A DNA stretch of 43,527 nt from an uncultured Candidatus Saccharibacteria bacterium (GCA_964460875.1 CAYWQN010000002.1:1-43527), one strand, 5' to 3'. Counted from the stretch's first letter, positions 23,999-40,543 are shown. The notes: generated by a model from the sequence alone, not told the origin. Made by a program: numbers and translations.

Positions 23999-26407
23999 AT
24001 GGCAAAACGAGTCACCGAGCATCTGTTCACTGGAGGCACCGTCATGTACGACGCGTACGACTCGACGAAAACTGTGCTCGGCGACCTCATCCGCCAACAA
24101 ACAGGCGCGGCATCCACTGACAAATACGCCGGTCCAACAAAAGTAGCTGTTGCCCGACCGAACGAAACGTCGGTAGCGGTTCCAGGCATCTACCCTCACG
24201 TCGTACGCTGGTCGGATAAATCAGGCTATTACATAACGGGCACCGTAGCGGTATCAGGCACCGCCGTCACCGGGTCCAGCACCGCGTGGCTCGCTGCGGG
24301 CGTGCCAGTGAATGCACGCATAGGCTTCGGTACTACCGACCCGGTAGCGGTAACGACCTGGTACAACATCGTGGCCATCCCTTCAGACACCTCACTGACG
24401 CTCGACGGATCTGCCGGCACCATAGCGGGCGGCACCTCGTTTGTTATTGATATGAACTACAACGTTGACTGGGTATTTCTAGCCGACGGTGCCGCAACCG
24501 CTGCAACAAGACGTATCACCTGCTTTGAATATCGCCGCGGTCTATCAATCTTCACCTGGAAAGGATTCATTACGCAGACGTATCCGACTGCCACGAACCA
24601 CACGATTACCGGTATGCGCGCCGTGTACGCGAAGTACACGACCGGCACCGTGGGAGTTTCCACCGCAACGGTAACGGGGAGCAGCACCACCTGGAGCGCT
24701 GACCGCATCAACATTGGCTCCCGCATCGGATTTGGTTCGTCCGACCCCACCCAGATATCTACCTGGTATTACATCAATGCCGTAGGGTCCGACACCTCAA
24801 TCACTATTCAAAACAACGTCACCGCTTCTGGTACCGGCGGCGTCGCATCGAACCTCTCAATATCCTCCGGCACCGCATACGTCATCGAGGACCTGCGCAT
24901 TCTCACTACCACAACAAACGCTACAGCCACCAACGGCGGACTCTTCATGTCCGCTGGCATGTCGCAGGATGACTTTACCCCTGCGGGCACCACTATTGCT
25001 GCAGCGGTGACCACTGACAAAGTAAAAGCAGTGTACTGGCTTGCCGATGCCTCAACCGTCACCAACGACGCGAACTCAGGCCTTGCGCTTGACGATCGGG
25101 ATAGTTGGACCCAGCAGTACTGCTACGTCATTGAGCGCGTCGCCGCGACCACGCCGTCAATATACAAATACAATTTCCGCACTGCGCTTGCGTCAATATC
25201 TGCCGGGAAAACTACCTCTGCGTTCGTGTTTGCAACCGGCATCCAGACCGTTACCGGTAACACATCAGCAACTAACAACGGCCGTGTCGGCACACTTTCC
25301 CACGGCCCGGCTTCCGGAATAAAGTCTCTCTTCTTCGCAACGACTTCGCGCATTTACCGCGTTGCAATCGGAAATATAGTAAACGGTTCGACCACATTTC
25401 TTTCTGACGCCATGGTGGAAGTACCGACCGGAGGCACCGGAACCTTTACGGCCACCGGCGCATTAACCGGCGTTGAAATTTCAGACCAGATTGACCGCCT
25501 TATCGTAACCTCAACGGGAGCTGCGGGCGTGAGAAGCTACGTAACCAAGTACAACACTAACTCCGATCCTTTCGACCATATCTTCCTGATTGACTCTAAG
25601 CAAATAGATCAGGCGGCAGCTGACTCAAGCTCAGTGCCACACCCCAACATCCAGGCCGGTATCATGAACGTCTGGTCAGAAGAAGGACTCACGTACATAA
25701 GCCGCGCCGGCACCACTTCGCTTACAAACGCACTCTACGCCGTGCCGCTTGGCGCTGATTGGTCCTATGCCGACGGCACGGTAAAACAGCGGCTTTACAC
25801 CCCATCCCTAGCGACGCCTAATGCGGTTAAGTATTCGCGTGCGTATGTAAATAATGCGCAATACTTGGGAGAAGATAATCTCACGCTTCCGACCGAACCG
25901 ATGCGCATGTATTACCGAACTTCGGGTATAAGCGATAACAGCGGCTCATGGACGCTCATCGACCAAACGGGGGACCTTTCCGGTGTTGATGGCGCGGCCG
26001 CCATACAGTTCGCAATTGAGTTCCGCACGATTGGTACGTTCTGTTTACCAACTCGCGTGTTTAACGTATGTGTTGTATATGAAGACAACACGACCGATAG
26101 CCATTACCAGCCATCGGTAGCGTTCTCTTCAACCACTGCTAAGCAGTTCGCATGGCGCTTCTCGACTGCCTTTGGCGGCACTGTGCCTACCTTGCAGATA
26201 CAGCTGTTCGACGCAGTTTCAGGAAGCCTCCTACTCACCGATGACAGCGCAACTCCAACGGGAACCTGGGAAAAATCTACAAACGATGGGGGAGCGTGGG
26301 GCGCGTACAATACCACTGACAAGGGAAATGATACGACCTATATCCGCTACACGCCGGCTGCTCTTGGCGACGATGTGAAAGTGCGTGCCCTCCTTACCCA
26401 AGCCTAA
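23999..26407 (+). CDS. Hypothetical 802-aa Thr/Ser/Gly/Ala-rich protein with an internal duplicated module and no signal peptide
   Basis: Long uninterrupted ORF 10 nt after the upstream stop. Duplicated GTVxVSxTxVTGSSTxW...RIGFG...WYxI...SDTS(L/I)T module at residues 78-151 and 212-298. Confidence 0.75.
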   Translation: MAKRVTEHLFTGGTVMYDAYDSTKTVLGDLIRQQTGAASTDKYAGPTKVAVARPNETSVAVPGIYPHVVRWSDKSGYYITGTVAVSGTAVTGSSTAWLAAGVPVNARIGFGTTDPVAVTTWYNIVAIPSDTSLTLDGSAGTIAGGTSFVIDMNYNVDWVFLADGAATAATRRITCFEYRRGLSIFTWKGFITQTYPTATNHTITGMRAVYAKYTTGTVGVSTATVTGSSTTWSADRINIGSRIGFGSSDPTQISTWYYINAVGSDTSITIQNNVTASGTGGVASNLSISSGTAYVIEDLRILTTTTNATATNGGLFMSAGMSQDDFTPAGTTIAAAVTTDKVKAVYWLADASTVTNDANSGLALDDRDSWTQQYCYVIERVAATTPSIYKYNFRTALASISAGKTTSAFVFATGIQTVTGNTSATNNGRVGTLSHGPASGIKSLFFATTSRIYRVAIGNIVNGSTTFLSDAMVEVPTGGTGTFTATGALTGVEISDQIDRLIVTSTGAAGVRSYVTKYNTNSDPFDHIFLIDSKQIDQAAADSSSVPHPNIQAGIMNVWSEEGLTYISRAGTTSLTNALYAVPLGADWSYADGTVKQRLYTPSLATPNAVKYSRAYVNNAQYLGEDNLTLPTEPMRMYYRTSGISDNSGSWTLIDQTGDLSGVDGAAAIQFAIEFRTIGTFCLPTRVFNVCVVYEDNTTDSHYQPSVAFSSTTAKQFAWRFSTAFGGTVPTLQIQLFDAVSGSLLLTDDSATPTGTWEKSTNDGGAWGAYNTTDKGNDTTYIRYTPAALGDDVKVRALLTQA

Positions 26408-26409
26408 TT

Positions 26410-27030
26410 ATGATTACTATCTCAAAGGGTGATCGTGTCGCGGGACTTCCCGACCTCATAGTGTCCTCTCCGTCGGGAGAGTACGCAGACGTAGACCTTA
26501 TTCTCTGTGCGCGGAAGGACGCGCCGAACTTCGACGCCGCCATGTACCAAGCGCAGTTTATCCGGTACGGAGAAGTCGTCTATCAGCACGAGACACCGGA
26601 AGCGCTTGGAGCGGTGCTTGTCGCCATTGATCCAGAATCCACTCATGATGCTGCGCAGCTGTGGCGGGAAGAAGAGAAGCGTCGCATCGCACGTGAAGGC
26701 GGTACTCTAGTGCCAGAAGATCAAACTCCTGCACCCGATGCCGTTGAACCTCAGACAACTATTCCTGAGGAAGAAGAGGACGACGTGAAGTTCTTTAAAG
26801 AGAAAGAGGAAGAAGCAGCTACTACCACACCAGATGAAGCGGTGCCGGACAGAGAAATCCCTGTCATTGATATTGAAGAACCGCCACTCGGCGAGGTGGG
26901 TGGTGCAGCATCTTCTACAGAGCCAATCGCCGATCCTTCAGTCCCCGTCATACAAATTGACGAGCCAGTGGTGACTCCTCCAGTTGAAGATGTGCCAGCG
27001 CTCGATATGTCGAGCACAACACCGCAATAG
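26410..27030 (+). CDS. Hypothetical acidic protein (206 aa) with a Pro/Glu/Thr-rich disordered tail
   Basis: Starts 2 nt after the previous stop. The C-terminal half is low complexity (EEEEDD, EKEEEAATTTPDE, repeated PVI(D/Q)I(E/D)EP). Confidence 0.6.
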   Translation: MITISKGDRVAGLPDLIVSSPSGEYADVDLILCARKDAPNFDAAMYQAQFIRYGEVVYQHETPEALGAVLVAIDPESTHDAAQLWREEEKRRIAREGGTLVPEDQTPAPDAVEPQTTIPEEEEDDVKFFKEKEEEAATTTPDEAVPDREIPVIDIEEPPLGEVGGAASSTEPIADPSVPVIQIDEPVVTPPVEDVPALDMSSTTPQ

Positions 27031-27032
27031 CC

Positions 27033-27215
27033 ATGGCGCTAACCGATATCGACTTTAACGAAGGAGAAGGACAAGATTTCATCGTCGAGCTTGCGACTGG
27101 AACTCTGGGTACGCCGGGAGATATTCTGGTCGAAGCAGGGAGCGATGCGTATCTTCTCCTAGAAACCCCAGCAGGGCAGGGAGGCGGGGATGAAATATTC
27201 ATCATAAACGACTAA
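27033..27215 (+). CDS. Hypothetical small acidic protein (60 aa)
   Basis: Starts 2 nt after the previous stop, in operon context only. Confidence 0.45.
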   Translation: MALTDIDFNEGEGQDFIVELATGTLGTPGDILVEAGSDAYLLLETPAGQGGGDEIFIIND

Positions 27216-27238: not shown

Positions 27239-27970
27239 ATGGACGATTCAGCGCCGATTACGGAACGCTATGGCGAGTATCTTGAAGAGCTACGGCGCAG
27301 ACTCTACCGTCTTGCGCTTATCTTCGTCGCTTCTTTCTTCATAGGAGTTGGTTCTACCAGTATCTTGCTGCCTTTTTTCGTAACACTCTTCTCTGTGCCG
27401 GGAGTGACCATCATTGCCACCTCGCCGTTTCAACTTCTTGAACTGACGATGAATACCGGTTTTTTCTCGGCGATAGCGCTTACCCTTCCGTTTGCGCTTC
27501 GTGAAGTCTATGCCTTTCTCCACGACGCGCTCTTACCACGTGAACGGCGTCTTATTTTCTGGTACATTCCGCTCGCCCTTCTTCTCTTCGCCGCCGGCTT
27601 TACCTACGGATTTGCGATTATGTATTACGCTATCGTGGTCATCGCGAACGTCAACATCGGGTTCGGTATCACTAATCTCTGGAATATTACCCAATTCATC
27701 TCACAAATCCTTATCACGGCAGCACTCCTCGGCGTCATCTTCGAGCTTCCGTTAATCCTTTCTGGCCTTATCCAGCTCGGCGTGTTGTCGGTAGACTACC
27801 TGCGCCGTCATCGTCGCATCGCATATGCAGGGATATTCATCTTTGTTGCTTTACTTCCCCCAACCGACGGGCTATCCTTCCTGGTGATGTCCCTTCCGCT
27901 TGTGGCGCTCTACGAAGTGACGATTGCCGTCAATTCGTTCCGCCGCCGGAAAGAACTCTTAACAATATAA
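27239..27970 (+). CDS. tatC: Twin-arginine translocase subunit TatC
   Basis: 243 aa. N-terminal EYLEELRRRL helix followed by six hydrophobic segments, and the LLPPTDG motif typical of TatC. TGGTATCCT lies 7 nt upstream. Confidence 0.85.
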   Translation: MDDSAPITERYGEYLEELRRRLYRLALIFVASFFIGVGSTSILLPFFVTLFSVPGVTIIATSPFQLLELTMNTGFFSAIALTLPFALREVYAFLHDALLPRERRLIFWYIPLALLLFAAGFTYGFAIMYYAIVVIANVNIGFGITNLWNITQFISQILITAALLGVIFELPLILSGLIQLGVLSVDYLRRHRRIAYAGIFIFVALLPPTDGLSFLVMSLPLVALYEVTIAVNSFRRRKELLTI

Positions 27971-27982
27971 TTTTTGGTACCT

Positions 27983-28141
27983 ATGTTTGGACTCGGCTCG
28001 AATGAACTCATCATCATCGCGGTCATTCTCGTACTTTTGTTTGGTGCCACCCGCATCCCAGCGCTCACGAAAGGAGTAGCAGACGCTATTCGCACACTGC
28101 GCGGTGCATTCAAAGACGAAGACAAAAACAAGAAGGTATAG
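27983..28141 (+). CDS. tatA: Twin-arginine translocase subunit TatA/E (52 aa; below the ORF-track cutoff)
   Basis: Hand translation MFGLGSNELIIIAVILVLLFGATRIPALTKGVADAIRTLRGAFKDEDKNKKV matches the TatA pattern: MFGxGxxELxxIxxxxxLLFG, then an amphipathic helix with GxxxxxFK. TAG stop at 28139-28141. Confidence 0.8.
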   Translation: MFGLGSNELIIIAVILVLLFGATRIPALTKGVADAIRTLRGAFKDEDKNKKV

Positions 28142-28234: not shown

Positions 28235-31200
28235 GTGAAGATTTCATTAAGCGGCCCTGCCGCTTTAAGCGGGAATCAAAAAAGGACTAGGATACGCATT
28301 GCGGGCCTAGCGTTGTTTGTTGCGCTATATATAGGGCTTCCCGCCGCCGTAGAAGCTGCGTACCAGCAGTTCCTTCCAGGAACTGATATCTACTTTGGTG
28401 AATTCGTATACGACGATGACTTTGTAGCAACTACTACCGCAGGCTGCACCATGACGGTCTATGATCCGTCTGGCTCACTTGTGGTGAATGCGGCAACAAT
28501 GACCGTTGACCCCAATGGCTTCTACGCCTATTCCTTTACACCAACCGAAACCCGGGGGGTATGGCCCGCATCCATGTCCTGCGGATCGGCATTAAACGGA
28601 AGTCTGGTGAAGCTCGATAAGACGTTTGAGATATCAGACAATGTTGTTTCCTCTTCGTCCGTTGCTGCCCTAGTAAATGCGAATACGAATCTTGCGGTTG
28701 CGACCGCTTCCTCTTCGCTCTCAGCAACCCTTCCTAATTCCATTTGGGCCTTCTCAGGTCGCACTCTTACATCGTTCGGAACATTAGTAGCTGACATCTG
28801 GGCATCCGGCACTCGCACCCTTACCGGATTTGGCACCCTTGCGGCTGACGTGTGGACATCCGCAACACGTACACTCACCGCTGCCGGTCTCACCTCGGGA
28901 TCACTGGCTCTTCAGTCAGATGTCACCACCGCTAGTTCGTCACTGGGCACGGCCATCACGAACAGTCAAACGGCTATTAATGCGAACACGAACTCACAGA
29001 TACTTACTGCCTCAACATCGCTCGCGTCGTTCATCAATACGAACACCAACGCGATTGTGCTCGCCGCTTCAAGCTCGCTGGGAGCGCAATTCAACGTCCT
29101 GGGAGCGACTATTGCAGGCATACCGGCGGCGGTCTGGAATATCACTACCGCATCGCTCTCAAGCCCAGGATCGATAGGGAAGCTTATCGTGGATAACCTC
29201 GATGTCGCGGTATCGACGGTTTCGGGTGGTGGTGGCCTCACGGCGGTTGATATCTGGACCTATGGCACACGAACGCTCACCGCAGCAACCCTCTCTTCAG
29301 GAGCACTCGCGCTTCAGTCTGACGTGACGACCGCCTCCTCCTCTATTGCGGCAGTGGTCAATGGAAATACGAATGCACAGGTACTTGCCGCTTCCACCTC
29401 ACTTGCTTCGAACATCAACACCAACACCAATGCCATTGTTCTTGCTGCCTCCTCGTCCCTCGGTGCTCAGTTCTCATCTATAACGTCATCCATTGCTTCC
29501 ATTCCAACCAACGTTTGGGCCGCAGGGACGCGTACTCTGACCGGCTTCGGAACGCTCGCAGCTGACGTCTGGACCAACGGTACTCGTACGCTTACCGGTG
29601 CCGGTCTCTCGTCAGGCTCTCTTGCCACGCTGTCTGACCTACAGACAGCATCATCATCTCTTGGCGCCGCTATTACTAACAGCGAAACGGCAATTAATGC
29701 GAACACGGATGCTGAGGTGCTTGCGGCTTCCACCTCACTTGCGTCCAATATCAACACAAACACGAACGCACAGGTACTCACCGCTTCTACCTCCCTTGGT
29801 CTCTCGCTTTCATCAATCGCATCTTCTATTACTTCGATACCGGCGAACGTATGGGCAGCAGGCACGCGTACGTTAACTGGGTTCGGTACTCTTGCTGCTG
29901 ACGTTTGGACCAATGGCACCAGAACCCTTACCGGAGCCGGCTTGTCGTCTGGATCCCTTGCCACTTTGTCTGACGTACAGAACGCTTCAAGCTCAGTGGC
30001 TGCAGTCGTAAACTCAAATACCGACAGTCGAGTTGCAATTGCTACCTCCTCGCTTGCTGCGGTGGTGAATGCGAACACCAACGCAACCGTTCTTGCCGCT
30101 TCCTCCTCGCTTGGCGCTCAGTTCGGCACGCTCGCAACAGCAATATCAGGTGTACCTGCCGGAGTCTGGAACATCACTACCGCCTCGCTCTCAAGTCCGG
30201 GCACGATAGGGAAGCTCCTCGTGGATAACATCGATGTACCTATTTCAAGCGGTGGCAGTCTTACAGCAGCCGATGTATGGGCGTTCGGCTCTCGCACTCT
30301 TACCGCCGCAACGTTGAGTGCCGGTTCGCTTGCACTTCAGTCTGACGTAACCACCGCATCCAGCTCACTCGCTGCAGTTATTAATGCCAACACCAACAGC
30401 GCAACAGCAGGAGTTACGAGTAGCGTGAACAGCAACACCAATGCAACGGTACTTACTGCATCGTCATCCCTTGCAACCTCGATTCCAGTGAACGTATGGA
30501 ATGCATCAGTACGCACGCTTTCATCATTTGGCACACTCGCTACCGATGTGTGGAGCGCAGCAAGCAGGACCCTCACGGCAGCTGGGTTGACGAGTGGTTC
30601 GCTCGCAACGTTGTCTGATGTGCAGACGGCCTCAAGCTCACTCGGGACAGCAATAACAAATAGTCAAACGGCAATTAACGCGAACACCGACAGTAGGGTA
30701 GGTATCGCATCGTCATCTCTTGCTGCGGTCATCAATGCAAATACGAACCTCTCCGTTCTCACGGCGTCCACCTCGCTTGGTCTCTCGCTTTCATCGATAG
30801 CAACTTCGATCACTTCAATTCCTACCGCAGTGTGGGCCGCTGGCACACGCACTCTTACCGGGTTCGGCACCCTTGCAGCTGACGTTTGGACGAATGGCAC
30901 CAGGACCCTTACCGGTGCAGGTCTCACCTCAGGGTCCCTTGCCACGCTGTCTGACCTACAGACAGCATCATCATCTCTTGGCGCCGCTATTACTAACAGC
31001 GAAACGGCAATTAATGCGAACACGGATGCTAAAGTACTTGCAGCTTCCACCTCGCTTGCATCCAATATCAACACAAACACAAACGCTACGGTGCTCGCTG
31101 CGTCCTCATCTCTTGGCGCTCAGTTCTCCTCTATTACGTCCGCTATCACTGCAGTTCCAGCGGCAGTATGGAACGTCGCAAGCTCTACGCTCACCACTCC

Positions 31201-34200
31201 AGGTTCTATTGGCAAGCATATCGTTAACAACCTCGATATTGCGGTCTCGACTATTTCAAGCGGCAGTGCCATTACCCCTGCTGACATCTGGGCGTACGGT
31301 ACGCGCTCCCTCACCACAGCCGCACTTTCTTCAGGGGCGCTGGCCACCAATGCTGATATCAACGCAGCGACCACGAGTGTGAACACCACCATCGGTACTG
31401 CCTCTTCATCCCTGGCAGCGGTTATCAACACCAATACCAATACGCAGGTTCTTACGGCTTCAACTTCGCTTGGCGCTCAGTTCTCGTCGATCACCTCATC
31501 CATTGCTTCCATCCCAACCAACGTTTGGGCCGCAGGGACACGCACCCTTACCGGGTTCGGCACCCTTGCGGCTGACGTCTGGACGAACGGCACACGAACA
31601 CTCACTGGCGCAGGGTTGTCGTCTGGATCCCTTGCGACGTTGTCTGATGTACAGACCGCTTCGAGCTCTGTCGCTGCGGTCGTGAATGCAAACACTAATA
31701 GTGCGACGGCAGGAGTTACGAGTAGCGTGAACAGTAATACCAATGCAACGGTACTTGTTGCATCGTCATCCCTTGCAACCTCGATACCAATAAATGTATG
31801 GAATGCATCAGTACGCACCCTTTCATCATTCGGTACGCTTGCAACCGATGTCTGGAGCGCAGCATCACGCACGCTCACTGCAGCTGGCCTTACCTCAGGA
31901 TCGCTCGCGCTTCAGTCAGACGTGACTACCGCGTCCTCCTCACTTGGTGCGGCAATAACGAACAGTCAAACCGCCATTAACGCAAATACGGATAGCCGTG
32001 TGGCAGTAGCAACATCGTCACTTGCTGCGGTCGTGAATGCGAACACAAACGCAACCGTTCTTGCAGCATCGTCCTCACTTGGCGCTCAGTTCTCGTCGAT
32101 CACCTCATCCATTGCATCCATCCCAACCAACGTATGGGCGGCAGGGACGCGTACTCTGACCGGCTTCGGAACGCTCGCAGCTGACGTCTGGACCAACGGT
32201 ACTCGTACGCTCACGGCTGGCACGCTTTCGGCGGGGTCGCTCGCCTTGCAGTCTGACGTAACGACGGCATCTACCTCTCTTGGCACAGCGATAACCAATA
32301 GTCAGACGGCGGTGAACGCGAACACCAACGCGCAGGTACTAGCGGCCTCCACTTCGCTTGCGTCGAATATAAATACCAATACGAACGCACAGATTCTCGC
32401 AGCCTCTTCTTCGCTCGCAACCGCGATACCCGTGAATGTCTGGAACGCGTCAGTCCGCACGCTCTCGTCGTTCGGTACGTTCGCGACCGATGTTTGGAGC
32501 GCCGCTTCGAGGACGCTCACGGCGGCGGGTCTGACCTCGGGAAGTCTCGCAACCTTGTCTGACGTTCAGACCGCATCATCCTCTATCGCGGCCGTCGTGA
32601 ATGCGAACACGGACACGAGGGTGACCACGGCAACTTCCTCGCTTGCAGCCGTCATAAACGCCAACACGAATGCGCAGGTGTTAACGGCATCCACCTCGCT
32701 TGGCCTCTCGCTCTCATCAATTGCTTCGTCCATCACCTCAATTCCAGCAAACGTCTGGGCGGCGGGCTCGCGTACGCTCACCGGTTTTGGAACGCTCGCG
32801 GCTGATGTGTGGACGAACGGGACGAGAACACTTACCGCAGGCACCCTTACTTCAGGAACGCTCGCCTTGCAATCTGACGTGACGACGGCTTCGTCGTCCC
32901 TCGGCACCGCCATTACGAACAGCCAGACGGCGGTGAACGCAAATACGAACGCGACGGTGCTCGCCGCATCCACGTCACTTGCCGCAGGAACCGCTGCAAG
33001 CCAGACCGTCGTAAACGCAAACACCAATGCCGCAGTCTTGGCCGCATCGTCCTCGCTTGCAACTTCTATACCCGTGAACGTGTGGAATGCATCAGTCCGC
33101 ACGCTCTCGTCGTTCGGTACGCTCGCGACCGATGTTTGGAGCGCCGCTTCGAGGACGCTCACGGCGGCGGGTCTGACCTCGGGAAGTCTCGCAACCTTGT
33201 CTGACGTTCAGACCGCCTCGTCGTCTGTCGCTTCAGTAGTTAACGCAAACACCAGTGCTGCAGTTCTCGCCGCATCCACGTCGCTTGCCTCGAACATAAA
33301 CGCGAATACCAACGCGACGGTGCTCGCCGCGTCGTCGTCCTTGGGTGCGCAGTTCTCGTCGATTACCTCATCAATTAGCGCGCTGCCGGCTGCGGTCTGG
33401 AACGTCGCAAGCACCACCCTTACGACCCCAGGCTCGATAGGCAAGCATATCGTCGGCAACCTCGATATCGTCGTATCGTCGATATCGGGCGGCGGCGGAC
33501 TTACCGCAGCAGACGTCTGGGCGTACGGTACGCGCTCGCTCACCACAGCGGCACTCTCTTCCGGCTCATTGGCCACGAATGCTGACATAAATACCGCCAC
33601 CTCGACCCTCACCACGACTATCACGACCGCCTCCTCGTCTATCGCCGCAGTCGTGAATGCAAATACCAATAGCGCCACGGCAGGGGTGACGAGCGGCGTG
33701 AATAGCAACACAAACGCCGCCGTTCTCGCCGCATCGTCGTCGCTTGCGACCTCGATACCGGTGAATGTGTGGAATGCCTCGGTCCGAACCCTCACCAGCT
33801 TCGGCACTATCGCGTCTGACGTCTGGAGCGCTGCAACGAGGACGCTCACGGCAGGCACACTCACCTCAGGAACGCTTGCGCTCCAGTCTGACGTTCAGAC
33901 CGCGTCTTCCTCCCTTGGCTCGGCGATAACGAACAGTCAGACGGCGATAAATGCCAATACCGACAGCCGCGCCTCCATCGCATCCTCGTCGCTTGCGGCG
34001 GTGATAAATGCGAACACCAACGCACAGGTACAGACTGCGTCCACCTCGCTCGGCGCCACGCTTGCCGCGATGCCGGCTGCAGTATGGGCGTCAGCCACAA
34101 GGACGCTCACCTCAGGCGCCTCTATCGCCTCAGACATCTGGGCGGCAGGCACGCGCACCCTCACGTCCCTCACGCTCTCGTCGCAGTCGCCGTGGTCGGT

Positions 34201-35086
34201 CGGCATGTCTGACTTCAGCACCATCACGGCAGGCGAGACCTATCGCGCGACGGTGACGACGGTCTACAACGGCACGCTTACCGATTCGGCAAACCTGCCG
34301 ACCATCATCGTGTATGACGCAAACCGCAACGTGGTCGTGAACGGCGCCGCCATGACGCGCACCGCGGTAGGCACCTACGAATACAGCTACGTGACAAGCG
34401 TGAGCGCCGCAGGCGGCGTATGGGAGACCGTCGTGTCTGCCACGGTTGAGTCAGGGAAGACGTTGCCGGGCAACGACTACTGGAACGTCTCGGTCGCGCC
34501 GCCGCAGGTCATCATCCAGAGCATGAGCAATACCGTGGTGCCGAACATCACCGCGAACGTCCGCATCACGAACGAGGGTGATGTGCCCTACGAATACCAG
34601 TACGAATGGTGCGTCGTCTCGAGCCTCGCAAATGGCTGCGGCGGCGGCGATGATATCGCGTACGGATCGGCCGCGAAGCTCATCAATCCGCTCGAGAACT
34701 TCGACACCGTCCTGTCGGCAACCGTCCCCGCGGCCGGCACCTATTACTTCAAGGTCGCGGTCTACTACGGCTCTGACGTATCACGCGCAAGCCGCCAATT
34801 CGCCGCAACTGCAGCAACCACCTCCGGAGGCGGGGGTGGCGGAGGCGGAGGCGGAGGCGGCGGGGGAGGAGGCGGAACCCCGGTCCCCGGAAGCGGCAGC
34901 TGCGGAGGAAATGTCGCCGATATCAACTGCGACGGCCGGGTGAATGCCGTGGACTTTTCCATCATGCTTGCGTATTGGAAGACCCAGGCGCCGTTCCGTA
35001 ATCCGCGCGTCGACCTCAATACTGACGCGCGCGTCGACGCCGTCGACTTCTCGATACTCCTCTATCACTGGGGCGCCACACGCTAA
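28235..35086 (+). CDS. Giant (2,283 aa) tandem-repeat surface protein with N-terminal signal/anchor, poly-Gly linker and C-terminal type-I dockerin
   Basis: A single 6.85-kb ORF. N-terminus KRTRIRIAGLALFVALYIGLPAAVEAA. About 17 Ser/Thr/Ala/Asn-rich modules. Seventeen consecutive Gly codons. The C-terminus has two dockerin calcium-binding repeats, DINCDGRVNAVDFSIML and DLNTDARVDAVDFSILL. Confidence 0.85.
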   Translation: MKISLSGPAALSGNQKRTRIRIAGLALFVALYIGLPAAVEAAYQQFLPGTDIYFGEFVYDDDFVATTTAGCTMTVYDPSGSLVVNAATMTVDPNGFYAYSFTPTETRGVWPASMSCGSALNGSLVKLDKTFEISDNVVSSSSVAALVNANTNLAVATASSSLSATLPNSIWAFSGRTLTSFGTLVADIWASGTRTLTGFGTLAADVWTSATRTLTAAGLTSGSLALQSDVTTASSSLGTAITNSQTAINANTNSQILTASTSLASFINTNTNAIVLAASSSLGAQFNVLGATIAGIPAAVWNITTASLSSPGSIGKLIVDNLDVAVSTVSGGGGLTAVDIWTYGTRTLTAATLSSGALALQSDVTTASSSIAAVVNGNTNAQVLAASTSLASNINTNTNAIVLAASSSLGAQFSSITSSIASIPTNVWAAGTRTLTGFGTLAADVWTNGTRTLTGAGLSSGSLATLSDLQTASSSLGAAITNSETAINANTDAEVLAASTSLASNINTNTNAQVLTASTSLGLSLSSIASSITSIPANVWAAGTRTLTGFGTLAADVWTNGTRTLTGAGLSSGSLATLSDVQNASSSVAAVVNSNTDSRVAIATSSLAAVVNANTNATVLAASSSLGAQFGTLATAISGVPAGVWNITTASLSSPGTIGKLLVDNIDVPISSGGSLTAADVWAFGSRTLTAATLSAGSLALQSDVTTASSSLAAVINANTNSATAGVTSSVNSNTNATVLTASSSLATSIPVNVWNASVRTLSSFGTLATDVWSAASRTLTAAGLTSGSLATLSDVQTASSSLGTAITNSQTAINANTDSRVGIASSSLAAVINANTNLSVLTASTSLGLSLSSIATSITSIPTAVWAAGTRTLTGFGTLAADVWTNGTRTLTGAGLTSGSLATLSDLQTASSSLGAAITNSETAINANTDAKVLAASTSLASNINTNTNATVLAASSSLGAQFSSITSAITAVPAAVWNVASSTLTTPGSIGKHIVNNLDIAVSTISSGSAITPADIWAYGTRSLTTAALSSGALATNADINAATTSVNTTIGTASSSLAAVINTNTNTQVLTASTSLGAQFSSITSSIASIPTNVWAAGTRTLTGFGTLAADVWTNGTRTLTGAGLSSGSLATLSDVQTASSSVAAVVNANTNSATAGVTSSVNSNTNATVLVASSSLATSIPINVWNASVRTLSSFGTLATDVWSAASRTLTAAGLTSGSLALQSDVTTASSSLGAAITNSQTAINANTDSRVAVATSSLAAVVNANTNATVLAASSSLGAQFSSITSSIASIPTNVWAAGTRTLTGFGTLAADVWTNGTRTLTAGTLSAGSLALQSDVTTASTSLGTAITNSQTAVNANTNAQVLAASTSLASNINTNTNAQILAASSSLATAIPVNVWNASVRTLSSFGTFATDVWSAASRTLTAAGLTSGSLATLSDVQTASSSIAAVVNANTDTRVTTATSSLAAVINANTNAQVLTASTSLGLSLSSIASSITSIPANVWAAGSRTLTGFGTLAADVWTNGTRTLTAGTLTSGTLALQSDVTTASSSLGTAITNSQTAVNANTNATVLAASTSLAAGTAASQTVVNANTNAAVLAASSSLATSIPVNVWNASVRTLSSFGTLATDVWSAASRTLTAAGLTSGSLATLSDVQTASSSVASVVNANTSAAVLAASTSLASNINANTNATVLAASSSLGAQFSSITSSISALPAAVWNVASTTLTTPGSIGKHIVGNLDIVVSSISGGGGLTAADVWAYGTRSLTTAALSSGSLATNADINTATSTLTTTITTASSSIAAVVNANTNSATAGVTSGVNSNTNAAVLAASSSLATSIPVNVWNASVRTLTSFGTIASDVWSAATRTLTAGTLTSGTLALQSDVQTASSSLGSAITNSQTAINANTDSRASIASSSLAAVINANTNAQVQTASTSLGATLAAMPAAVWASATRTLTSGASIASDIWAAGTRTLTSLTLSSQSPWSVGMSDFSTITAGETYRATVTTVYNGTLTDSANLPTIIVYDANRNVVVNGAAMTRTAVGTYEYSYVTSVSAAGGVWETVVSATVESGKTLPGNDYWNVSVAPPQVIIQSMSNTVVPNITANVRITNEGDVPYEYQYEWCVVSSLANGCGGGDDIAYGSAAKLINPLENFDTVLSATVPAAGTYYFKVAVYYGSDVSRASRQFAATAATTSGGGGGGGGGGGGGGGGGTPVPGSGSCGGNVADINCDGRVNAVDFSIMLAYWKTQAPFRNPRVDLNTDARVDAVDFSILLYHWGATR
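28646..34194 (+). repeat. In-frame tandem repeat array (about 17 modules of roughly 100-125 aa, or 300-375 nt) inside the giant gene
   Basis: Recurrent peptide boxes (V/I)W-x3-(T/S)R(T/S)LT, GSLA(T/L)(L/Q)SDVxTASSS and NANTNxxVLAASSSL. Copies share identical stretches of 71, 93 and 94 nt. Confidence 0.9.
34826..34876 (+). repeat. 17 consecutive glycine codons (GGN microsatellite-like tract)
   Basis: The sequence reads gga ggc ggg ggt ggc gga ggc gga ggc gga ggc ggc ggg gga gga ggc gga, in the frame of the giant gene. Confidence 0.9.
34919..35083 (+). other. Dockerin type-I module (two EF-hand-like repeats) at the C-terminus of the giant protein
   Basis: D-x-N-x-D-(G/A)-x-V-x-x-x-D-F-S-I-(M/L)-L occurs twice, separated by about 20 residues. 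Confidence 0.8.
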
Positions 35087-35089
35087 TCT

Positions 35090-35935
35090 ATGAACTATCT
35101 TTACGCTATCGCACTGTTCTTGCTCCTCCTGGTCGCCGAGCCTGCCCAGGCGGCGCGCTTGTCGGTTGAAGCGCCGCTAGCCGCCGCCGAAGCGCCATTC
35201 TATCTTCCGGTAGTCCTTCAGACCGAGAACGATTCTATAAACGCCGTTACCGGCTCCATACTCGTCCCGCCCGGCATCACGATAGACAGCATCGACACTT
35301 CAGGCTCAGCCTTTGCGCTCTTTGCTGAAGGCCCGTCATATGTCCTGGCCTCACATGCCATCGAATTCACCGCAGGCGCCCCGCACGGCATAGCAGCAGG
35401 CGAAGTGGCGCTCCTCTTTATCGTGAAAGCGCATGCCATAGCGCCAGGAACCTATACCTTCACCCCGCAGAATATGTCTGCGTACGCGAACGACGGGGCT
35501 GGAAGTCCGGCAAGCATCGCTTTTTCATCGACGGCAGTATCCGTTGGCGCTCCTGGCTCGGTGCATGTGGATCCACCGAAGACTGAGCACGCAGCGCCCA
35601 TCATCGCGGCCATAGGCCAGGACGACTCCTTGTTCGAAGGGAAGTGGTTCGCCACCTTCTACGGCGGCGCTTCAGGAAGCGCGGTTGATCATTATCTCGT
35701 GCGCGAAGGGTGGTGGCACGGCACGGTAAAAGCGAACCGCTACTACGTGCTCGAAGACCAGCGCCGCACCACGACCCTCTGGATAACGGCAGTAGGCGAG
35801 AACGGCAAGAAAGTGACGACGGTTATTCCCGCCTTCGAGCCATGGCCGGAACGGCTTCTCTTCGCGGCAATCGTGCTTGTCGCAGGCGCGCTCGCGGCGC
35901 TCCTATGGAAGATGCGCCGAAGGCGTTCACACTAG
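35090..35935 (+). CDS. Membrane-anchored cohesin-like protein (281 aa)
   Basis: Sec-type signal (LLLLVAEPAQA). A roughly 130-aa beta-sandwich-like region shows the cohesin-like pattern (FYLPVVLQTENDSINAVTGSILVPPGITIDSID...GEVALLFIVKAHAIAPGTYTF). C-terminal TM plus basic stop-transfer tail (LLFAAIVLVAGALAALLWKMRRRRSH). Starts 3 nt after the dockerin gene. Confidence 0.55.
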   Translation: MNYLYAIALFLLLLVAEPAQAARLSVEAPLAAAEAPFYLPVVLQTENDSINAVTGSILVPPGITIDSIDTSGSAFALFAEGPSYVLASHAIEFTAGAPHGIAAGEVALLFIVKAHAIAPGTYTFTPQNMSAYANDGAGSPASIAFSSTAVSVGAPGSVHVDPPKTEHAAPIIAAIGQDDSLFEGKWFATFYGGASGSAVDHYLVREGWWHGTVKANRYYVLEDQRRTTTLWITAVGENGKKVTTVIPAFEPWPERLLFAAIVLVAGALAALLWKMRRRRSH

Positions 35936-35937
35936 CC

Positions 35938-37392
35938 ATGATGCGCTTCACGTACGCCGCCGCTCTCATCCTCCTGCTTACGGGCGCGCCCGTCGTCGCA
36001 ACCGCAGCGACCATTCAAGTAACGCCCGCATCAGTCTCCGTGCATGCAGGCGATATCGTGACGGTGCGCCTCATCGCGAACACCCAGGGGGCGGCCATAA
36101 ACCAGGGCGAAGGCACGCTCCGCTTCCCGACCGACATGCTCGACGTAGTGTCTGCAAGCAAAGCAGGCTCCATATTCACGCTCTGGGTGGAGGAGCCCGC
36201 GTACTCGAACGGCGCCGGTACCGTGCATTTCGACGGCGGCGTGCCCACCCCGGGGTACACCGGCTCCGCGGGTACCATGCTTGCCATCACCTTTCATGCA
36301 AAAAAAGCCGGGACGGCGACGCTTTCGCTTACCGATAGCGCGCTCCGGGCAAACGACGGCTTCGGCACCGACGTGCTGACCGCGTCAAACGGGGGAGTCA
36401 TTACCATCACGGAGACGGTAGCGCCTGCGCCAACACCCGCGACGCCTGCGCCCGCCACACCGAGCGCGCCCGTCGGCGCCGGCAGCATCGCTTCGCTCAC
36501 CTCGTCAACGCACAGCGATCAGACCGCGTGGTACCAGAACGAGAATGCCTTGATGACGTGGCAGCTCCCGGCAGGCGCTACCGCCGTGCAGACTATCGTC
36601 GACCGCAGCGCGACTGCGGCGCCTTCGGTCGAGTACAAGCCGGCTATCGTCGAGAAGCGCGTCACTAACCTTGCTGACGGCGTGTGGTACTTCGGAGTGC
36701 GCGCGAAAGTAGGAGGCGCCTGGGGGCCGGTAGCGCGCTACACGCTCCAGATTGACCGCTCGGCTCCCGAGCTCGCCTCAACCATAACGCTCGACTACGA
36801 TGAAGCGGCTCAGGATCTCCTCATATCCGGCGTATCCGCCTCTGACGAGGTGTCCGGCATCGACCACTACGAGCTTTCGGTAGACGGGAAGAATCCGCTT
36901 CGGGTGGCGTCAGACGCTTTTGCCGGAGGTTCGTACCGCCTCCACTACGCAAAGACGGGCACGCACTCGATACAGCTTCGCGCGTATGACAAGGCGGGGA
37001 ACCACACCGAGGCTTCCGGCTCGTTCAATACCCCGACGCCGCTTGCCGACCAGACGCTCTGGCGCATAGGCGGCCTCTCCATCACCTTCGCCTGGTTCAT
37101 ACTGCTCGTTCTCCTCATATCGCTTGTTTCGCTCGCAGCTGCAGCGACCGCTTGGTATAAACTGTATATGCTCCGCGCGGGAGCGAAATCCCGCGTCGAG
37201 AAGCGCGACAAGATGCTGCACCGCTCGCTACGCATCTATAAAGAAGAGCTGGAGCGGCACCTGCGCACTTTGGAACGTGCAGGATCAAAGCGCGAGCTCA
37301 CCGACGAGGAGGCGGACCTGAACGAAGACCTCAAGAAGAACGTGGACGACCTGGAACGCTATCTGACCAAAGAGTTCAAGAAGTACGATTAG
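35938..37392 (+). CDS. Membrane-anchored cohesin-domain protein (484 aa) with Ig/FN3-like middle region and cytoplasmic coiled-coil tail
   Basis: Signal peptide MMRFTYAAALILLLTGAPVVATA. Cohesin-like segment IQVTPASVSVHAGDIVTVRLIANTQGAAINQGEGTLRFPTDMLDVVS...GTMLAITFHAKKAGTATLSL. Pro/Ala/Thr linker, then TM FAWFILLVLLISLVSLAAAATAW, then a charged tail. The start is trimmed from the track value 35710 to the ATG just after the upstream stop. Confidence 0.62.
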   Translation: MMRFTYAAALILLLTGAPVVATAATIQVTPASVSVHAGDIVTVRLIANTQGAAINQGEGTLRFPTDMLDVVSASKAGSIFTLWVEEPAYSNGAGTVHFDGGVPTPGYTGSAGTMLAITFHAKKAGTATLSLTDSALRANDGFGTDVLTASNGGVITITETVAPAPTPATPAPATPSAPVGAGSIASLTSSTHSDQTAWYQNENALMTWQLPAGATAVQTIVDRSATAAPSVEYKPAIVEKRVTNLADGVWYFGVRAKVGGAWGPVARYTLQIDRSAPELASTITLDYDEAAQDLLISGVSASDEVSGIDHYELSVDGKNPLRVASDAFAGGSYRLHYAKTGTHSIQLRAYDKAGNHTEASGSFNTPTPLADQTLWRIGGLSITFAWFILLVLLISLVSLAAAATAWYKLYMLRAGAKSRVEKRDKMLHRSLRIYKEELERHLRTLERAGSKRELTDEEADLNEDLKKNVDDLERYLTKEFKKYD

Positions 37393-37433: not shown

Positions 37434-39275
37434 ATGAAATCCGCCGCAGAGCGGGCTCCAAATAGAGATAATCGCAAGGACGGCGCGCCGAAGCGTCCTA
37501 ATCTCCATATCGCAGGACCTGAAGACCTGGAGCGCCTGAAGCGCAAGGAGGCAGGACAGCTGCGCGACCAGTACGTCATACACGAACCAGAGGCAATCGC
37601 TATAGCTGCGCCCACTGAGGATGAGCTGGCGCAGCTCGATCCGCTAGTCCGTAAAGCGGTGATGAAAGCGTACAAAGACGCAAAAGAGACGCAGCGTGAA
37701 GACTATAAGAGAGGCGTGAAGGAACGCGAGGCAACGCGTACGCGACCTAAACGCATCGGCATACTCTCAGCCGAGTACCAGGCGAACATGGCTATGATAA
37801 AAGGCCAGAACCCGACCGACACGCTCGGCCCTATGGAGAGCACCGGCGGCATCACGTCCCCGCGCTATCAGGAAGTGCTGCGCCAGCGCCGTCAGCTCGC
37901 AAAGATTCAGGAAGCACAGGAGTTCAAGCCCTTCACGCGCATACTCCCGAGAATGATCGGCAATTTCATATTCGGCAAGCGCCCCGTCCCGCTCGTAAAA
38001 AGCGGCGAGGCTAAAAAAACTATTCGCGGACTTGCGGCGCTGCTTGCCCTCGGCGGCGCGAACATTGCGACCGCGCACCCGGAAGACCATGAGTCGCATC
38101 GTACTGGAAGCCCCATCGAACACGCGCTCGCAGAAGCAGAGCTCGCTCAAGCGGAGCGCACCTTGAGCGGCCCGGCAGCAGAGAGCGCGCTCAACATCAT
38201 TGACCGCATGTGGCAAACCAAGGGCGCCAATGCAATATCGCGCGGCCACGACACCGCTTCGCAGCGCCTTGCCATGCATACGCAGCTCAAGGAGGCCTTG
38301 GAAGACGGCCGCGTGCATCACCTCTCGCTTGATGACGAGCTTGCGAGCTCTATGGGCATCCAGGAAAGCGAGTACCGTGAACGCAGCATCACGCAAATCA
38401 TTGCCGGTCATGACACCTTCGACTGGTATACCTTCTCAGAGGATTTCCAGCTCAGCGCCGAGCAGCGCGCAACCACCGAGCGTCTTGTTCGGCTTGTCTC
38501 TCCTGGAATGATTGAGTCTATCTTCTTAAACGAAGTAATGGGGGAAGGGGACGGCGAGCAAAATGTCGCAGCATGGGCCAGGACGCTCGGCACATTGGGC
38601 GAAGGCACTTCCATGGTCCCTACCTTGGGCGACCGCTACGGCATCGTCGGTCCCGGCCAAGAAACTCTTACGCTCGCTCCGGACCAGTCGGTAGGACGGA
38701 TGAGCCGTTACATTTCCTCGGAAGGGTTCTGGTATCTGAATCTTCCCACTTCGTTCGCAGATACTCGCTCGGATTATGAGCGGGGAAGCCATATGGGCTT
38801 CCGTACCTCGCTTGAGACAAACGCACGCGTGCCCCGCTCTCTGGCCGAAGAACGCCTCGAAGTCGCCCTAAACGCGGCCTACAACATTGCTCGCGCAAGC
38901 CAGTCCCTGGAATCACAGCGCGGCTTGAACTACATCGCGCAGATTGCCGAGAACACGCAACCGGAGAATGCACGGCAGCGCGCCCTCGCGCTCACGCGCC
39001 TCGCGGAATTCGTCGGTATGGCGCATAACAACCCGGGCGATGCCCTCAAGGCGCTTAGCGAATGGTCGCGCGCCGGACATCGTTTGAACATAGCGCTTCA
39101 CACCTACGCACCGCGAGATTCCATCGTGCAGGACTATGGCGCTCGCGCCGTCATGAATTACCCGGCAATGGAAGAGTATGCCACGCGGGTATTTGCGCAG
39201 CGCGGCGTCCGGCTTCCACAGGAAACCCCGGCTTTCGAGCGTATTCGCAGCAATATCAGGCGCGGCATTCAGTAA
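37434..39275 (+). CDS. Hypothetical 613-aa protein with a basic N-terminal region and one internal hydrophobic segment
   Basis: Long ORF. The hydrophobic stretch IRGLAALLALGGANIATA near residue 200 suggests an N-in signal-anchor. No family recognised. Confidence 0.65.
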   Translation: MKSAAERAPNRDNRKDGAPKRPNLHIAGPEDLERLKRKEAGQLRDQYVIHEPEAIAIAAPTEDELAQLDPLVRKAVMKAYKDAKETQREDYKRGVKEREATRTRPKRIGILSAEYQANMAMIKGQNPTDTLGPMESTGGITSPRYQEVLRQRRQLAKIQEAQEFKPFTRILPRMIGNFIFGKRPVPLVKSGEAKKTIRGLAALLALGGANIATAHPEDHESHRTGSPIEHALAEAELAQAERTLSGPAAESALNIIDRMWQTKGANAISRGHDTASQRLAMHTQLKEALEDGRVHHLSLDDELASSMGIQESEYRERSITQIIAGHDTFDWYTFSEDFQLSAEQRATTERLVRLVSPGMIESIFLNEVMGEGDGEQNVAAWARTLGTLGEGTSMVPTLGDRYGIVGPGQETLTLAPDQSVGRMSRYISSEGFWYLNLPTSFADTRSDYERGSHMGFRTSLETNARVPRSLAEERLEVALNAAYNIARASQSLESQRGLNYIAQIAENTQPENARQRALALTRLAEFVGMAHNNPGDALKALSEWSRAGHRLNIALHTYAPRDSIVQDYGARAVMNYPAMEEYATRVFAQRGVRLPQETPAFERIRSNIRRGIQ

Positions 39276-39718: not shown

Positions 39719-40543
39719 ATGCACGCATCTATGAAAAATTTCGCACTCATCCCGAGCCTGTTGCTGGCCATTACGCTCATAGGAGCCCCGCTTGGCGCAT
39801 TCGCTGCAACCGCCTCCGGCAGCTTCGACCAAACCTCGCTCACCACAAGCACCACGAAGCCGACTATCGAAGGGTCCGCTGAAAACGTAAAGACGGTGCG
39901 TATTACGCTCGCCGACGCGAACGGGAAATCCGTGTATAAAAGCGGCACGATAAAAGTTAAGAATGGAGAGTGGGCGAAGAAAATCCCTAAAAAGCTCAAG
40001 GAAGGGAACTACGCGGTCACGCTCTATGGATCCAAGATCTCAAGCAGCACCGCTCTCGCTAGCAGCACGCTTGCCGTACTCGGCAAAGGGGAGACGGGCG
40101 GGTCTGTTTCAGTCTCCATGATTCCCCTCTTGTTCGGCGGAAATGCGCTCCATGGCGTTTCTATACCGGTAGCCTATGTCAAAGTCTCAAACACCGGCAC
40201 GGCCTCAACCTCGATCTCGGGATTCAATCTCACCGAAAACGGCTCAGCGCCCGACGATGTGGTTATCGGCTTCTCGACGAGCGATGATAAAGGTGCCTCA
40301 AGGACGACTATCGGCGGCACGGAAGGATCGACGCAATTCAAAAAAGGTGCAGCCTTTGTCCCGCTTGCAGGCACTATCGGCCCCAAGCAGTTCCGCATCT
40401 ATACGATAAAAGCGATTCTTTCCAAGAATAGCGGCAGCTACTACGGGACGAAGCTCATGATAAACGTCGTATCGGTAGCGACCGGCGCAAAAGTTTCCGG
40501 CATTATGCCGCTCCGCGGCACGACCTGGACCCTGGTCTATTAA
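39719..40543 (+). CDS. Secreted hypothetical protein (274 aa), beta-rich
   Basis: Signal peptide MKNFALIPSLLLAITLIGAPLGAFA; the ATG at 39731 is probably the true start. Ser/Thr/Gly-rich mature part. Confidence 0.65.
   Translation: MHASMKNFALIPSLLLAITLIGAPLGAFAATASGSFDQTSLTTSTTKPTIEGSAENVKTVRITLADANGKSVYKSGTIKVKNGEWAKKIPKKLKEGNYAVTLYGSKISSSTALASSTLAVLGKGETGGSVSVSMIPLLFGGNALHGVSIPVAYVKVSNTGTASTSISGFNLTENGSAPDDVVIGFSTSDDKGASRTTIGGTEGSTQFKKGAAFVPLAGTIGPKQFRIYTIKAILSKNSGSYYGTKLMINVVSVATGAKVSGIMPLRGTTWTLVY

Follow-up and report, generated by a model that had tools for sequence, protein, structure and literature searches.

How a secreted protein of 2,283 amino acids (aa) with a dockerin at its C-terminus is kept on the cell that produces it is the question raised by positions 28235-37392 of a 43,527-nucleotide (nt) stretch of DNA (GCA_964460875.1, CAYWQN010000002.1:1-43527; the whole stretch is called the window below). 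The answer that we consider likely is that three consecutive genes form a conserved cassette tethering interchangeable secreted proteins to the membrane by cohesin-dockerin binding, a reading drawn from domain identities, topology signals, gene order, conservation and co-variation. The three open reading frames (ORFs), all confirmed on the plus strand, are the following:

28235-35086, plus strand: giant secreted fibre protein, the cargo of the putative cassette, 2,283 aa, GTG start (ORF; homologous giants of 1,150-2,140 aa occupy the same position in the related loci L001, L003 and L006)
35090-35935, plus strand: p2, the putative short anchor, 281 aa (hhalign, alignment, p2-only profile, hydropathy)
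35938-37392, plus strand: p3, the putative long anchor, 484 aa (AlphaFold, Foldseek, Pfam, NCBI names)

The stop-to-start junctions read TAA-TCT-ATG between the giant gene and p2 and TAG-CC-ATG between p2 and p3, in agreement with the gaps of 3 nt and 2 nt reported in the initial annotation of the locus. By hydropathy, a signal-type hydrophobic segment is found at the N-terminus of all three products alike; in p2 and p3 this signal ends in AxA, and each has a single C-terminal transmembrane (TM) segment, so that the Sec signal and the C-terminal TM helix with a basic or coiled-coil tail that had been ascribed to both downstream proteins are also retained. In the public annotation (P0001, 495 aa), p3 begins 11 codons earlier, at 35905, in an overlap with p2; homologue alignment favours the ATG at 35938 as the start.

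The C-terminal module of the giant protein is composed of:

34190-34816, plus strand: a pair of beta-sandwich domains ahead of the linker, the second at about 34502-34816 (immunoglobulin-like (Ig) plus dockerin query; C-terminal alignment)
34826-34876, plus strand: run of 17 Gly, aa 2198-2214, flexible tether (read in sequence)
34916-35059, plus strand: type-I-like dockerin with two Ca-binding loop-helix repeats (Pfam PF00404)

Pfam Dockerin_1 (PF00404) covers aa 2228-2275 of the giant protein at 30.3 bits, above its gathering score of 22.9 (E 5e-07), and the best matches in the PDB are structures of the Clostridium thermocellum Cel48S type-I dockerin (2mte and 1daq, E 6e-07 with phmmer), followed by other type-I dockerins. 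Repeat 1 (DINCDGRVNAVDFSIML, aa 2229-2245, nt 34919-34969) and repeat 2 (DLNTDARVDAVDFSILL, aa 2260-2276, nt 35012-35062) contain the loops D-I-N-C-D-G-R-V-N-A-V-D and D-L-N-T-D-A-R-V-D-A-V-D, each followed by FSI(M/L)L and aligned to the Cel48S dockerin. Both loops show, on direct reading, the Ca-ligand pattern D1, N3, D5, N/D9, D12, and the two-segment, EF-hand-like loop and helix organisation of type-I dockerins is present. Both the two canonical dockerin repeats, whose similarity exceeds chance, and the 17-Gly linker recognised earlier, the latter of exactly 17 residues, are upheld by these results. A query with the Ig-like domain plus dockerin recovered 199 homologues, most of them with PF00404, and the dockerins of homologous giants and of cargos made of fibronectin type III (FN3) domains also lie above the Pfam cut-off (26.6-38.2 bits). 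Poly-Gly runs recur in L001, L003, L004 and L006, and the last beta-sandwich travels with poly-Gly and dockerin as a conserved module, the C-terminal alignment being kept in L004 and L005, which have FN3 cargo. Matches of this module to single-chain variable fragment (scFv) linkers in the PDB were an artefact of the poly-Gly run, and the search was repeated without Gly.

The features of p3, all of them seen in its AlphaFold model, are listed here with any further evidence in brackets:

aa 1-23, plus strand: signal peptide (hydropathy)
36007-36411, plus strand: cohesin, aa 24-158 (Foldseek, Pfam family matches)
36412-36486, plus strand: Pro/Thr linker, disordered in the model
36490-36753 and 36787-37032, plus strand: two FN3-like domains, aa 185-272 and 284-365
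37087-37158, plus strand: TM helix (hydropathy)
37159-37389, plus strand: cytoplasmic helical hairpin, aa 408-484

The initial annotation had described both p2 and p3 as cohesin-like. Pfam recovers its dockerin, as seen above, and does not recover its cohesins in the window proteins themselves: p3 scores 18.3 bits on Cohesin (PF00963) against a cut-off of 24.1 (E 0.0028, 123 of 139 profile positions), and nothing in Pfam matches p2. Cohesin identity was therefore set by family profiles and fold; direct sequence searches of the PDB with p2 and p3 gave nothing meaningful, profiles being required. More than 135 homologues of p3 were found, all from Patescibacteria/Paceibacterota metagenomes; many have precomputed PF00963 matches, and several bear the NCBI name 'cohesin domain-containing protein'. 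Among 43 diverse members of the family, 26 match Pfam Cohesin at E <= 0.01 (best E 2.6e-09) and 28 match Big_13.

The AlphaFold model of p3, built with 115 homologues, has a mean predicted local distance difference test score (pLDDT) of 92.5. Residues 24-158 form nine strand segments, as in the flattened nine-stranded beta-sandwich (jelly-roll) of cohesins, with pLDDT >= 91 in each 10-residue block and mostly 96-98. In Foldseek against the PDB the top match is 2w1n, the cohesin-FN3 double module of Clostridium perfringens GH84C (E 3.2e-12), and single cohesins come next over about 150 columns, with TM-scores (template modelling) of 0.69-0.75 and root mean square deviations (rmsd) of 2.6-3.8 Å (1g1k, 0.75 with rmsd 2.8; 6kge/6kgf, 0.75 for 6kgf; 2vn5/2vn6, 0.69 for 2vn6; 4dh2, 0.71; 4uyq, 0.72). 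The family matches and this structural similarity together bear out the cohesin-like description of p3. The cohesin is also the most conserved domain of p3, and conservation is slightly higher in its 8-3-6-5 sheet, assigned from the order of strands in the model, than in the second sheet (0.62 vs 0.54, p = 0.03); the 8-3-6-5 sheet is the one that binds dockerin in type-I complexes such as 1OHZ.

At its C-terminus, p3 has a TM segment (aa 374-407) followed by a 77-aa helical tail. A continuous helix (aa 384-451) comprises the TM and part of the cytoplasmic region in the model and folds back on helix 456-483. The charge pattern R.LT.EE ... LD..E....KE of the tail recurs throughout the family despite low identity. 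The tail could bind a cytoplasmic partner, and we know of no cohesin anchor with a tail like this one. S-layer homology (SLH) domains and LPXTG signals had no match in Pfam or NCBIfam.

For p2 the following features were assigned:

aa 1-21, plus strand: signal peptide (hydropathy)
35156-35551, plus strand: divergent cohesin, aa ~23-154 (hhalign, alignment, profile)
35597-35839, plus strand: FN3/Ig-like domain, aa ~170-250 (alignment)
35846-35914, plus strand: TM helix, aa 253-275, followed by the tail KMRRRRSH (hydropathy)

This protein is a paralogue of p3, aligning to the p3 family in hhalign with a probability of 99.8 (E 4.6e-30) over the cohesin and the membrane-proximal FN3-like domain, and it lacks the middle domain and the cytoplasmic tail. 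With a p2-only profile of 58 sequences, the top matches in the PDB are the Ruminococcus flavefaciens cohesins 5aoz (E 1.7e-4) and 5m2o (E 9.7e-4), and 4 of the 58 p2 relatives individually match Pfam Cohesin (best E 3.2e-07). Homology of the p2 domain to cohesins is thus established by profile, and its earlier description as cohesin-like stands. The dockerin and cohesin modules are bona fide family members and, from family profiles, fold and TM evidence, p2 and p3 are therefore membrane-anchored single-cohesin proteins.

Occurrence of the trio was analyzed beyond the window by scanning one genome per GTDB species for p3 and fetching 80 species-representative loci, in which six-frame ORFs were searched with hidden Markov models for dockerin, p2 and p3. 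At least 579 of these species-representative genomes have a p3 relative; their labels are Paceibacteria, Nomura-, Kaiser-, Adler-, Zambryski-, Taylor-, Vogel-, Wolfe-, Falkow-, Komeili- and Wildermuthbacteria. Every relative comes from a Patescibacteria/Paceibacteria metagenome-assembled genome, which fits the small-genome bacterium initially proposed. The trio is syntenic in related genomes: in 60 of the 80 loci, a dockerin protein, p2 and p3 abut in this order on one strand, and virtually all complete cassettes contain p2. Of the remaining 20 loci, ten are truncated at a contig end, two (L032 and L048) do have the trio, being cases of ORF parsing or fusion, and eight are real exceptions (L017, L052, L055, L058, L059, L062, L086 and L087).

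What varies between cassettes is the first gene. In L001, L003 and L006, with p3 73%, 47% and 43% identical, giants of 2,101, 1,150 and 2,140 aa ending in Pfam-positive dockerins are followed by proteins of ~280 and ~480 aa. In the more distant L004, L005 and L007 the first gene, followed by two of cohesin type, encodes an FN3/Big_6 array of 337-853 aa that ends in the same poly-Gly and dockerin, which in L004/L005 come after the same Ig-like domain. Dockerin-bearing ORFs vary in length between about 270 aa and more than 3,300 aa. In the reverse direction, from short dockerin proteins among the 199 homologues of the Ig-plus-dockerin query, the trio was recovered again: both loci inspected have two downstream genes of cohesin-protein size, one such gene showing a faint Cohesin match.

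These patterns bear on the possibility that the dockerin and the cohesins are lookalikes that do not bind each other, the former being a Ca2+-binding stabiliser and p2 and p3 Ig-like envelope proteins with another ligand, in which case the adjacency of the genes would follow from shared regulation or a common envelope role. Non-cellulosomal cohesin- and dockerin-like modules with no assigned partner are widespread, according to the statement for which PMC9012536 cites Peer et al. 2009, and the window cohesins are sub-threshold in Pfam. However, a tight three-gene order maintained over deep divergence, a dockerin retained while the body of the cargo changes completely, the domain-specific co-variation reported below and the conservation of the p3 N-terminal cohesin, predicted to be extracellular, above the other domains of the protein make this the least probable of the explanations considered, and a highly improbable one.

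Other arrangements were encountered in the fetched loci. Two p3-type cohesin genes stand in tandem in L017, L026, L067 and L072. Downstream of p2-p3, ORFs of ~250-290 aa (L059, 12416-13171; L062, 5092-5964; L087, 4046-4795) join in one chain a membrane or signal segment at the N-terminus, a cohesin-like domain and, at the C-terminus, a dockerin, resembling adaptor scaffoldins. In these three loci no dockerin gene abuts p2 upstream; L059 has one ~2 kb upstream, and the upstream DNA amounts to only 1.6 kb in L062 and 0.5 kb in L087.

Co-variation was assessed by comparing pairwise distance matrices across 63 cassettes by Spearman correlation. Dockerin distances correlate with those of the p3 cohesin (rho 0.57) and the p2 cohesin (0.51), and weakly with those of the p3 FN3 domains (0.14 and 0.15) and the p3 tail (0.05). 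When the FN3 domains are controlled for, partial rho is 0.55 for the p3 cohesin and 0.48 for the p2 cohesin, values as high being reached in 0 of 1000 label permutations, compared with 0.10 and 0.11 for the FN3 controls; the p2 cohesin has a partial rho of 0.36 with the p3 cohesin controlled. Dockerins fall into two classes: 45 belong to class A, with Ser/Ala at loop position 10, and 18 to class B, where this position is Leu and the final helix carries Ala in place of Leu. Along with the class, p3 R137 changes to L and p2 Y132 to L, residues that immediately precede a near-invariant ANDGxGT motif in both paralogues, and the p3 FN3 domains have no class-specific columns. This co-variation is supportive, and not decisive, evidence that the dockerin would pair with the cohesins.

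Several points weigh against the tethering reading. The division into two classes accounts for a large part of the co-variation, which is modest among class A cassettes (cohesins 0.25 and 0.32 vs FN3 0.14 and 0.18, the cohesins still being higher) and not domain-specific among those of class B (cohesins 0.55 and 0.42 vs 0.50 for FN3a and 0.26 for FN3b), so that shared ancestry could explain part of it. Four loci (L017, L052, L055 and L058) have p3 with neither an adjacent dockerin gene nor a p2 gene. To these are added the p3 score under the Pfam Cohesin cut-off and the lack of any Pfam match for p2 in the window, as well as the low-confidence model of the fibre (pLDDT 52) described below. Also, the cell-surface cohesin anchors known to us use SLH domains or sortase and not a TM helix, and a membrane-held cohesin must reach through the cell wall, the window itself encoding MraY, MurG and FtsW.

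The same comparisons bear on the individual roles of the two cohesin proteins. Possibly only one of them, most likely p3, is the stable anchor and p2 has another job, as an export escort or assembly factor, a competitor regulating display, or a receptor for a dockerin encoded elsewhere. Consistent with such a division, p2 is far more divergent than p3 (mean pairwise distance 0.71 vs 0.52), has neither the middle FN3-like domain nor the cytoplasmic tail and occurs as a ~200-aa and a ~300-aa form, and some loci have two p3-like genes or p3 alone. Nevertheless, the near-constant presence of p2 in complete cassettes, the co-variation of its cohesin with the dockerin to about the same extent as that of p3, part of which persists once the p3 cohesin is controlled for, and the same class switch beside its ANDG motif leave us doubtful of a single anchor. 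That two different anchors allow alternative tethering, as suggested initially, is speculation.

Under the tethering reading, Sec would export the cargo and both anchors, as their signal sequences suggest. p2 and p3 would insert as type-I membrane proteins with the N-terminal cohesin outermost on an FN3-like stalk and one C-terminal TM helix, the cohesin of p3 being raised on the Pro/Thr linker and two FN3-like domains. The Ca2+-folded dockerin, on its 17-Gly leash, would then plug into the cohesin of p3 and/or p2, and the cargo would be held non-covalently at the cytoplasmic membrane with its N-terminal tip domain outward. In the window, this cargo would be a segmented, largely alpha-helical fibre of ~2,300 aa with an Ig-like domain, poly-Gly tether and type-I dockerin at its C-terminus; across species the cargo (FN3 arrays, repeat fibres) would be the exchangeable part, and the dockerin and both cohesins the constant one. 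Physical binding between dockerin and cohesin, the cohesin used and the stoichiometry are what we infer in this scheme.

The body of the fibre protein, preceding the C-terminal module, contains:

28235-28354, plus strand: signal peptide, hydrophobic (h-) region aa 20-42, AVEA/A cleavage-type site, no twin-arginine (hydropathy, N-terminal comparison with other dockerin proteins)
28355-28624, plus strand: N-terminal beta-sandwich 'tip' domain, weakly MG2-like, at the end opposite to the dockerin (sub-threshold Pfam MG2 match, E 4.5e-05)
28625-34189, plus strand: repeat fibre, 17 units of 73-152 aa (protein-level unit parsing, motif count)

The tip-domain motif FVYDDDFVATTTAGC is kept in L001, L003, L006, P0255 and P0329. 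Each repeat unit consists of one or two 18-aa VWxxx[ST]R[ST]LT motifs and then a helical stretch rich in Ala, Ser, Thr and Asn (18% Ala, 17% Ser, 16% Thr and 7.5% Asn over the fibre) that carries paired [IVL]xxNT motifs at a spacing of 19 residues; 32 such motifs were observed vs 5.0 +/- 2.2 in shuffles. Units were parsed at the protein level because they are diverged and irregular and Tandem Repeats Finder detected no DNA-level tandem array in the gene. Among 1.8 billion representative proteins, 546 are related to the repeat, some of them likewise ending in dockerins, and the repeat belongs to no Pfam or PHROG family. Pfam matches to DUF7032, MC5 and DUF1319 were discounted as compositional, since no single stretch passes, and kinship to phage tail fibres, considered both for this protein and for an 802-aa protein encoded upstream, found no support in PHROGs. 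An AlphaFold model of four repeat units, with the window's own repeats as alignment, has a mean pLDDT of 52 and shows helices of 46-68 residues (pLDDT 65-84) alternating with unstructured connectors that hold the W motifs; only its secondary structure was used, and because of its low confidence the shape and length of the fibre are uncertain. The fibre may be an oligomeric segmented coiled coil with a length of the order of 100 nm, as estimated from 17 predicted helices at about 0.15 nm per residue.

An oligomeric fibre would present several dockerins, and p2 and p3 could then constitute a single hetero-oligomeric receptor, with multivalent tethering of, for example, a trimeric coiled coil. 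The obligatory co-occurrence of the p2 and p3 genes agrees with this proposal, as do the long single helices of low monomer confidence in the AlphaFold model and the resemblance of the 32 [IVL]xxNT motifs to the Asn-at-d motif of trimeric autotransporter stalks. One locus (L048, 6784-9387) has p2 and p3 in one open frame, in the order signal, cohesin, FN3 and TM followed by the p3 signal peptide, its cohesin and the rest through to the TM and tail, an in-frame fusion consistent with the membrane topology, which is either a Rosetta-stone hint of joint anchors or an assembly error. The latter possibility for a lone fusion, the spacing of the motifs at 19 residues without regular heptads, and the FN3-array cargo of other lineages, which carries no coiled-coil signature, speak against the hetero-oligomer, and we regard it as unlikely. 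Less likely still is its extension to a phylum-wide plug-and-display organelle of the Paceibacteria, in which a two-cohesin receptor of p2 and p3 would hold an oligomeric host-contact fibre, perhaps >100 nm long, by several dockerins, the p3 hairpin would relay load or contact inward, and the cargo gene would be rapidly swapped or expanded for host or substrate specificity; if true, cohesin-dockerin pairing would here serve as an adhesion and signalling device and not as an enzyme scaffold.

In comparison with known systems, the tethering reading follows the logic of cellulosomal anchoring scaffoldins, by which a secreted dockerin protein is held on the cell by a cohesin anchor. The dockerin is of the same two-repeat Ca-loop type as in cellulosomal type-I pairs and anchoring scaffoldins (C. 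thermocellum OlpC/OlpA/SdbA type), Cel48S being its best PDB match, and the p3 cohesin superposes on clostridial cohesins (C. cellulolyticum, C. acetobutylicum, A. cellulolyticus and OlpC, 4dh2) with TM-scores of 0.69-0.75. The cassette is nevertheless not a cellulosome, since glycoside hydrolases and carbohydrate-binding modules are lacking nearby: a Pfam scan found neither in the three proteins nor in the ORFs >=150 aa of the 43.5-kb window, as the initial annotation had held. It includes no enzymes and no multi-cohesin scaffoldin, each protein having one cohesin, and differs further in its two single-cohesin paralogues, in the conserved cytoplasmic helical tail of p3, in a cargo that is a structural fibre or FN3 array, and in its host, a Patescibacterium and not a Firmicute. 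In contrast to SLH- or sortase-type anchoring scaffoldins, its anchor is a single C-terminal TM helix.

Outside cellulose degradation, C. perfringens GH84C (2w1n) shows the same succession of a cohesin and an FN3-type domain, yet the C. perfringens modules join secreted glycoside hydrolases, while the cassette is a fixed three-gene unit and would join a non-enzymatic fibre to membrane anchors. Single non-cellulosomal cohesins and dockerins of archaea (Archaeoglobus and the anaerobic methanotrophic archaea, ANME) and of other bacteria have been proposed to act in envelope attachment and cell-cell interaction (PMC9012536). They resemble those of the cassette in lying on surface proteins without cellulolytic context; in ANME, however, the genes are scattered and variable, often concern S-layer or ABC-binding proteins, and have no known partners, unlike in the cassette, where partners could be assigned because of the invariant operon-like order and the co-variation.

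The role proposed for cohesin-dockerin pairs in cell-cell contacts of ANME consortia (PMC9012536) would also be in line with binding in trans, whereby the cohesins capture fibres from sister cells or the medium and give rise to aggregation or a shared matrix in place of self-display, and the sequences do not force binding in cis. Nonetheless, translationally coupled co-expression, as suggested by the 3-nt and 2-nt gaps, and lineage-specific co-variation fit a self-contained pair, and the fibre has no second anchor on its producer, so that bridging would need its tip to bind something else; we therefore hold trans binding to be very unlikely.

For the body of the fibre only, the stalks of trimeric autotransporters offer a parallel, being likewise long, polar and rich in Ala, Ser, Thr and Asn, with [IVL]xxNT motifs and predicted long helices. 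The exact Asn-at-d consensus is reportedly that of Hartmann and co-workers. An Asn-at-d motif does exist in trimeric autotransporter stalks (PMC13580157). The fibre differs in having no outer-membrane beta-barrel anchor, head or neck, its anchoring end being the dockerin, and in its motifs, 19 residues apart and broken by VWxxxSRTLT connectors; no YadA-type domain was found in the Pfam scan, and the protein does not classify as a trimeric autotransporter adhesin.

Host contact is a known lifestyle of cultivated Patescibacteria. In Southlakia epibionticum, the dockerin-domain envelope protein SEML1_0315 is described, in the available text of PMC10633639, as essential for epibiotic growth by transposon sequencing. 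It is, by this description, likewise a Patescibacterial cell-envelope dockerin protein, from a different class (Saccharibacteria), and the same text reports no cohesin partner or cassette for it. The most likely role of the fibre is contact with, or adhesion to, a host or substrate; this fits both the lifestyle of cultivated Patescibacteria and the essentiality of SEML1_0315, and is speculative for the present organism.

Non-cellulosomal cohesin-dockerin pairs are already known from C. perfringens, archaea and ANME, and the proteins described here carry domain-based NCBI names. In the literature searched on dockerins, cohesins and cellulosomes in the Candidate Phyla Radiation (CPR)/Patescibacteria, we found no description of the three-gene cassette, of a pair of TM-anchored cohesin paralogues, of the p3 cytoplasmic tail, of interchangeable cargo or of such breadth across Patescibacteria. 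The parts are familiar, whereas their assembly, though widespread, is undescribed in this literature. Few bacteria are as diverse and as little understood as the Paceibacteria (Parcubacteria), of which almost none have been cultured. The cassette is probably a way in which these bacteria mount variable surface proteins, conserved in at least hundreds of species-level genomes and displaying fast-evolving, sometimes giant proteins, among which the fibres are candidate host-range determinants. It would extend cohesin-dockerin biology to a membrane-anchored, non-enzymatic, operon-encoded minimal system. The dockerin and both cohesins being small and soluble, binding, specificity classes and stoichiometry are measurable cheaply with recombinant modules and without cultivation, which makes the surface biology of an uncultured radiation directly accessible to experiment. 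For protein engineering, the cassettes represent a natural library of cohesin-dockerin pairs that may be orthogonal (classes A and B).

The genes around the cassette include class I and II tRNA synthetases, ScpA/B, DD-carboxypeptidase, MraY, FtsW, MurG and GltX, and further an M23 peptidase, a histidine kinase, TatC and TatA. With these housekeeping and cell-wall surroundings the window is ordinary chromosome, and an origin as a mobile element or prophage was rejected.

TatC (27239-27970) and TatA (27974-28141) adjoin the giant gene, as they do the corresponding gene in 16 distinct related loci, and export of the giant protein by the twin-arginine (Tat) system was considered for this reason. 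Its N-terminus, KRTRIR-IAGL, has no RR, and RR occurs near the h-region in only 4 (L003, L010, L014 and L040) of the 17 TatAC-adjacent dockerin proteins, the window included and three of the 17 being N-terminally masked or cut; Tat export was rejected as a general rule because RR is missing in most homologues.

Further upstream, an 802-aa protein (23999-26407, plus strand) is very strongly conserved, scoring 1,462 bits against its counterpart in L040, where p3 is 35% identical; it has no signal peptide and no match in Pfam, PHROG or PDB sequences. With a 206-aa acidic protein (26410-27030) and a 60-aa protein (27033-27215) it stands at the head of a block that immediately precedes TatC-TatA and the dockerin gene in 13-14 fetched loci in addition to the window, and it may belong to the same system as the cassette. 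Downstream of p3 lie genes for a 613-aa protein without family match (37434-39275, plus strand) and a 274-aa secreted Big_13 (Ig-like) protein (39719-40543, plus strand); both are probably outside the cassette, as they are conserved in the closest relatives only (L001 and L006).

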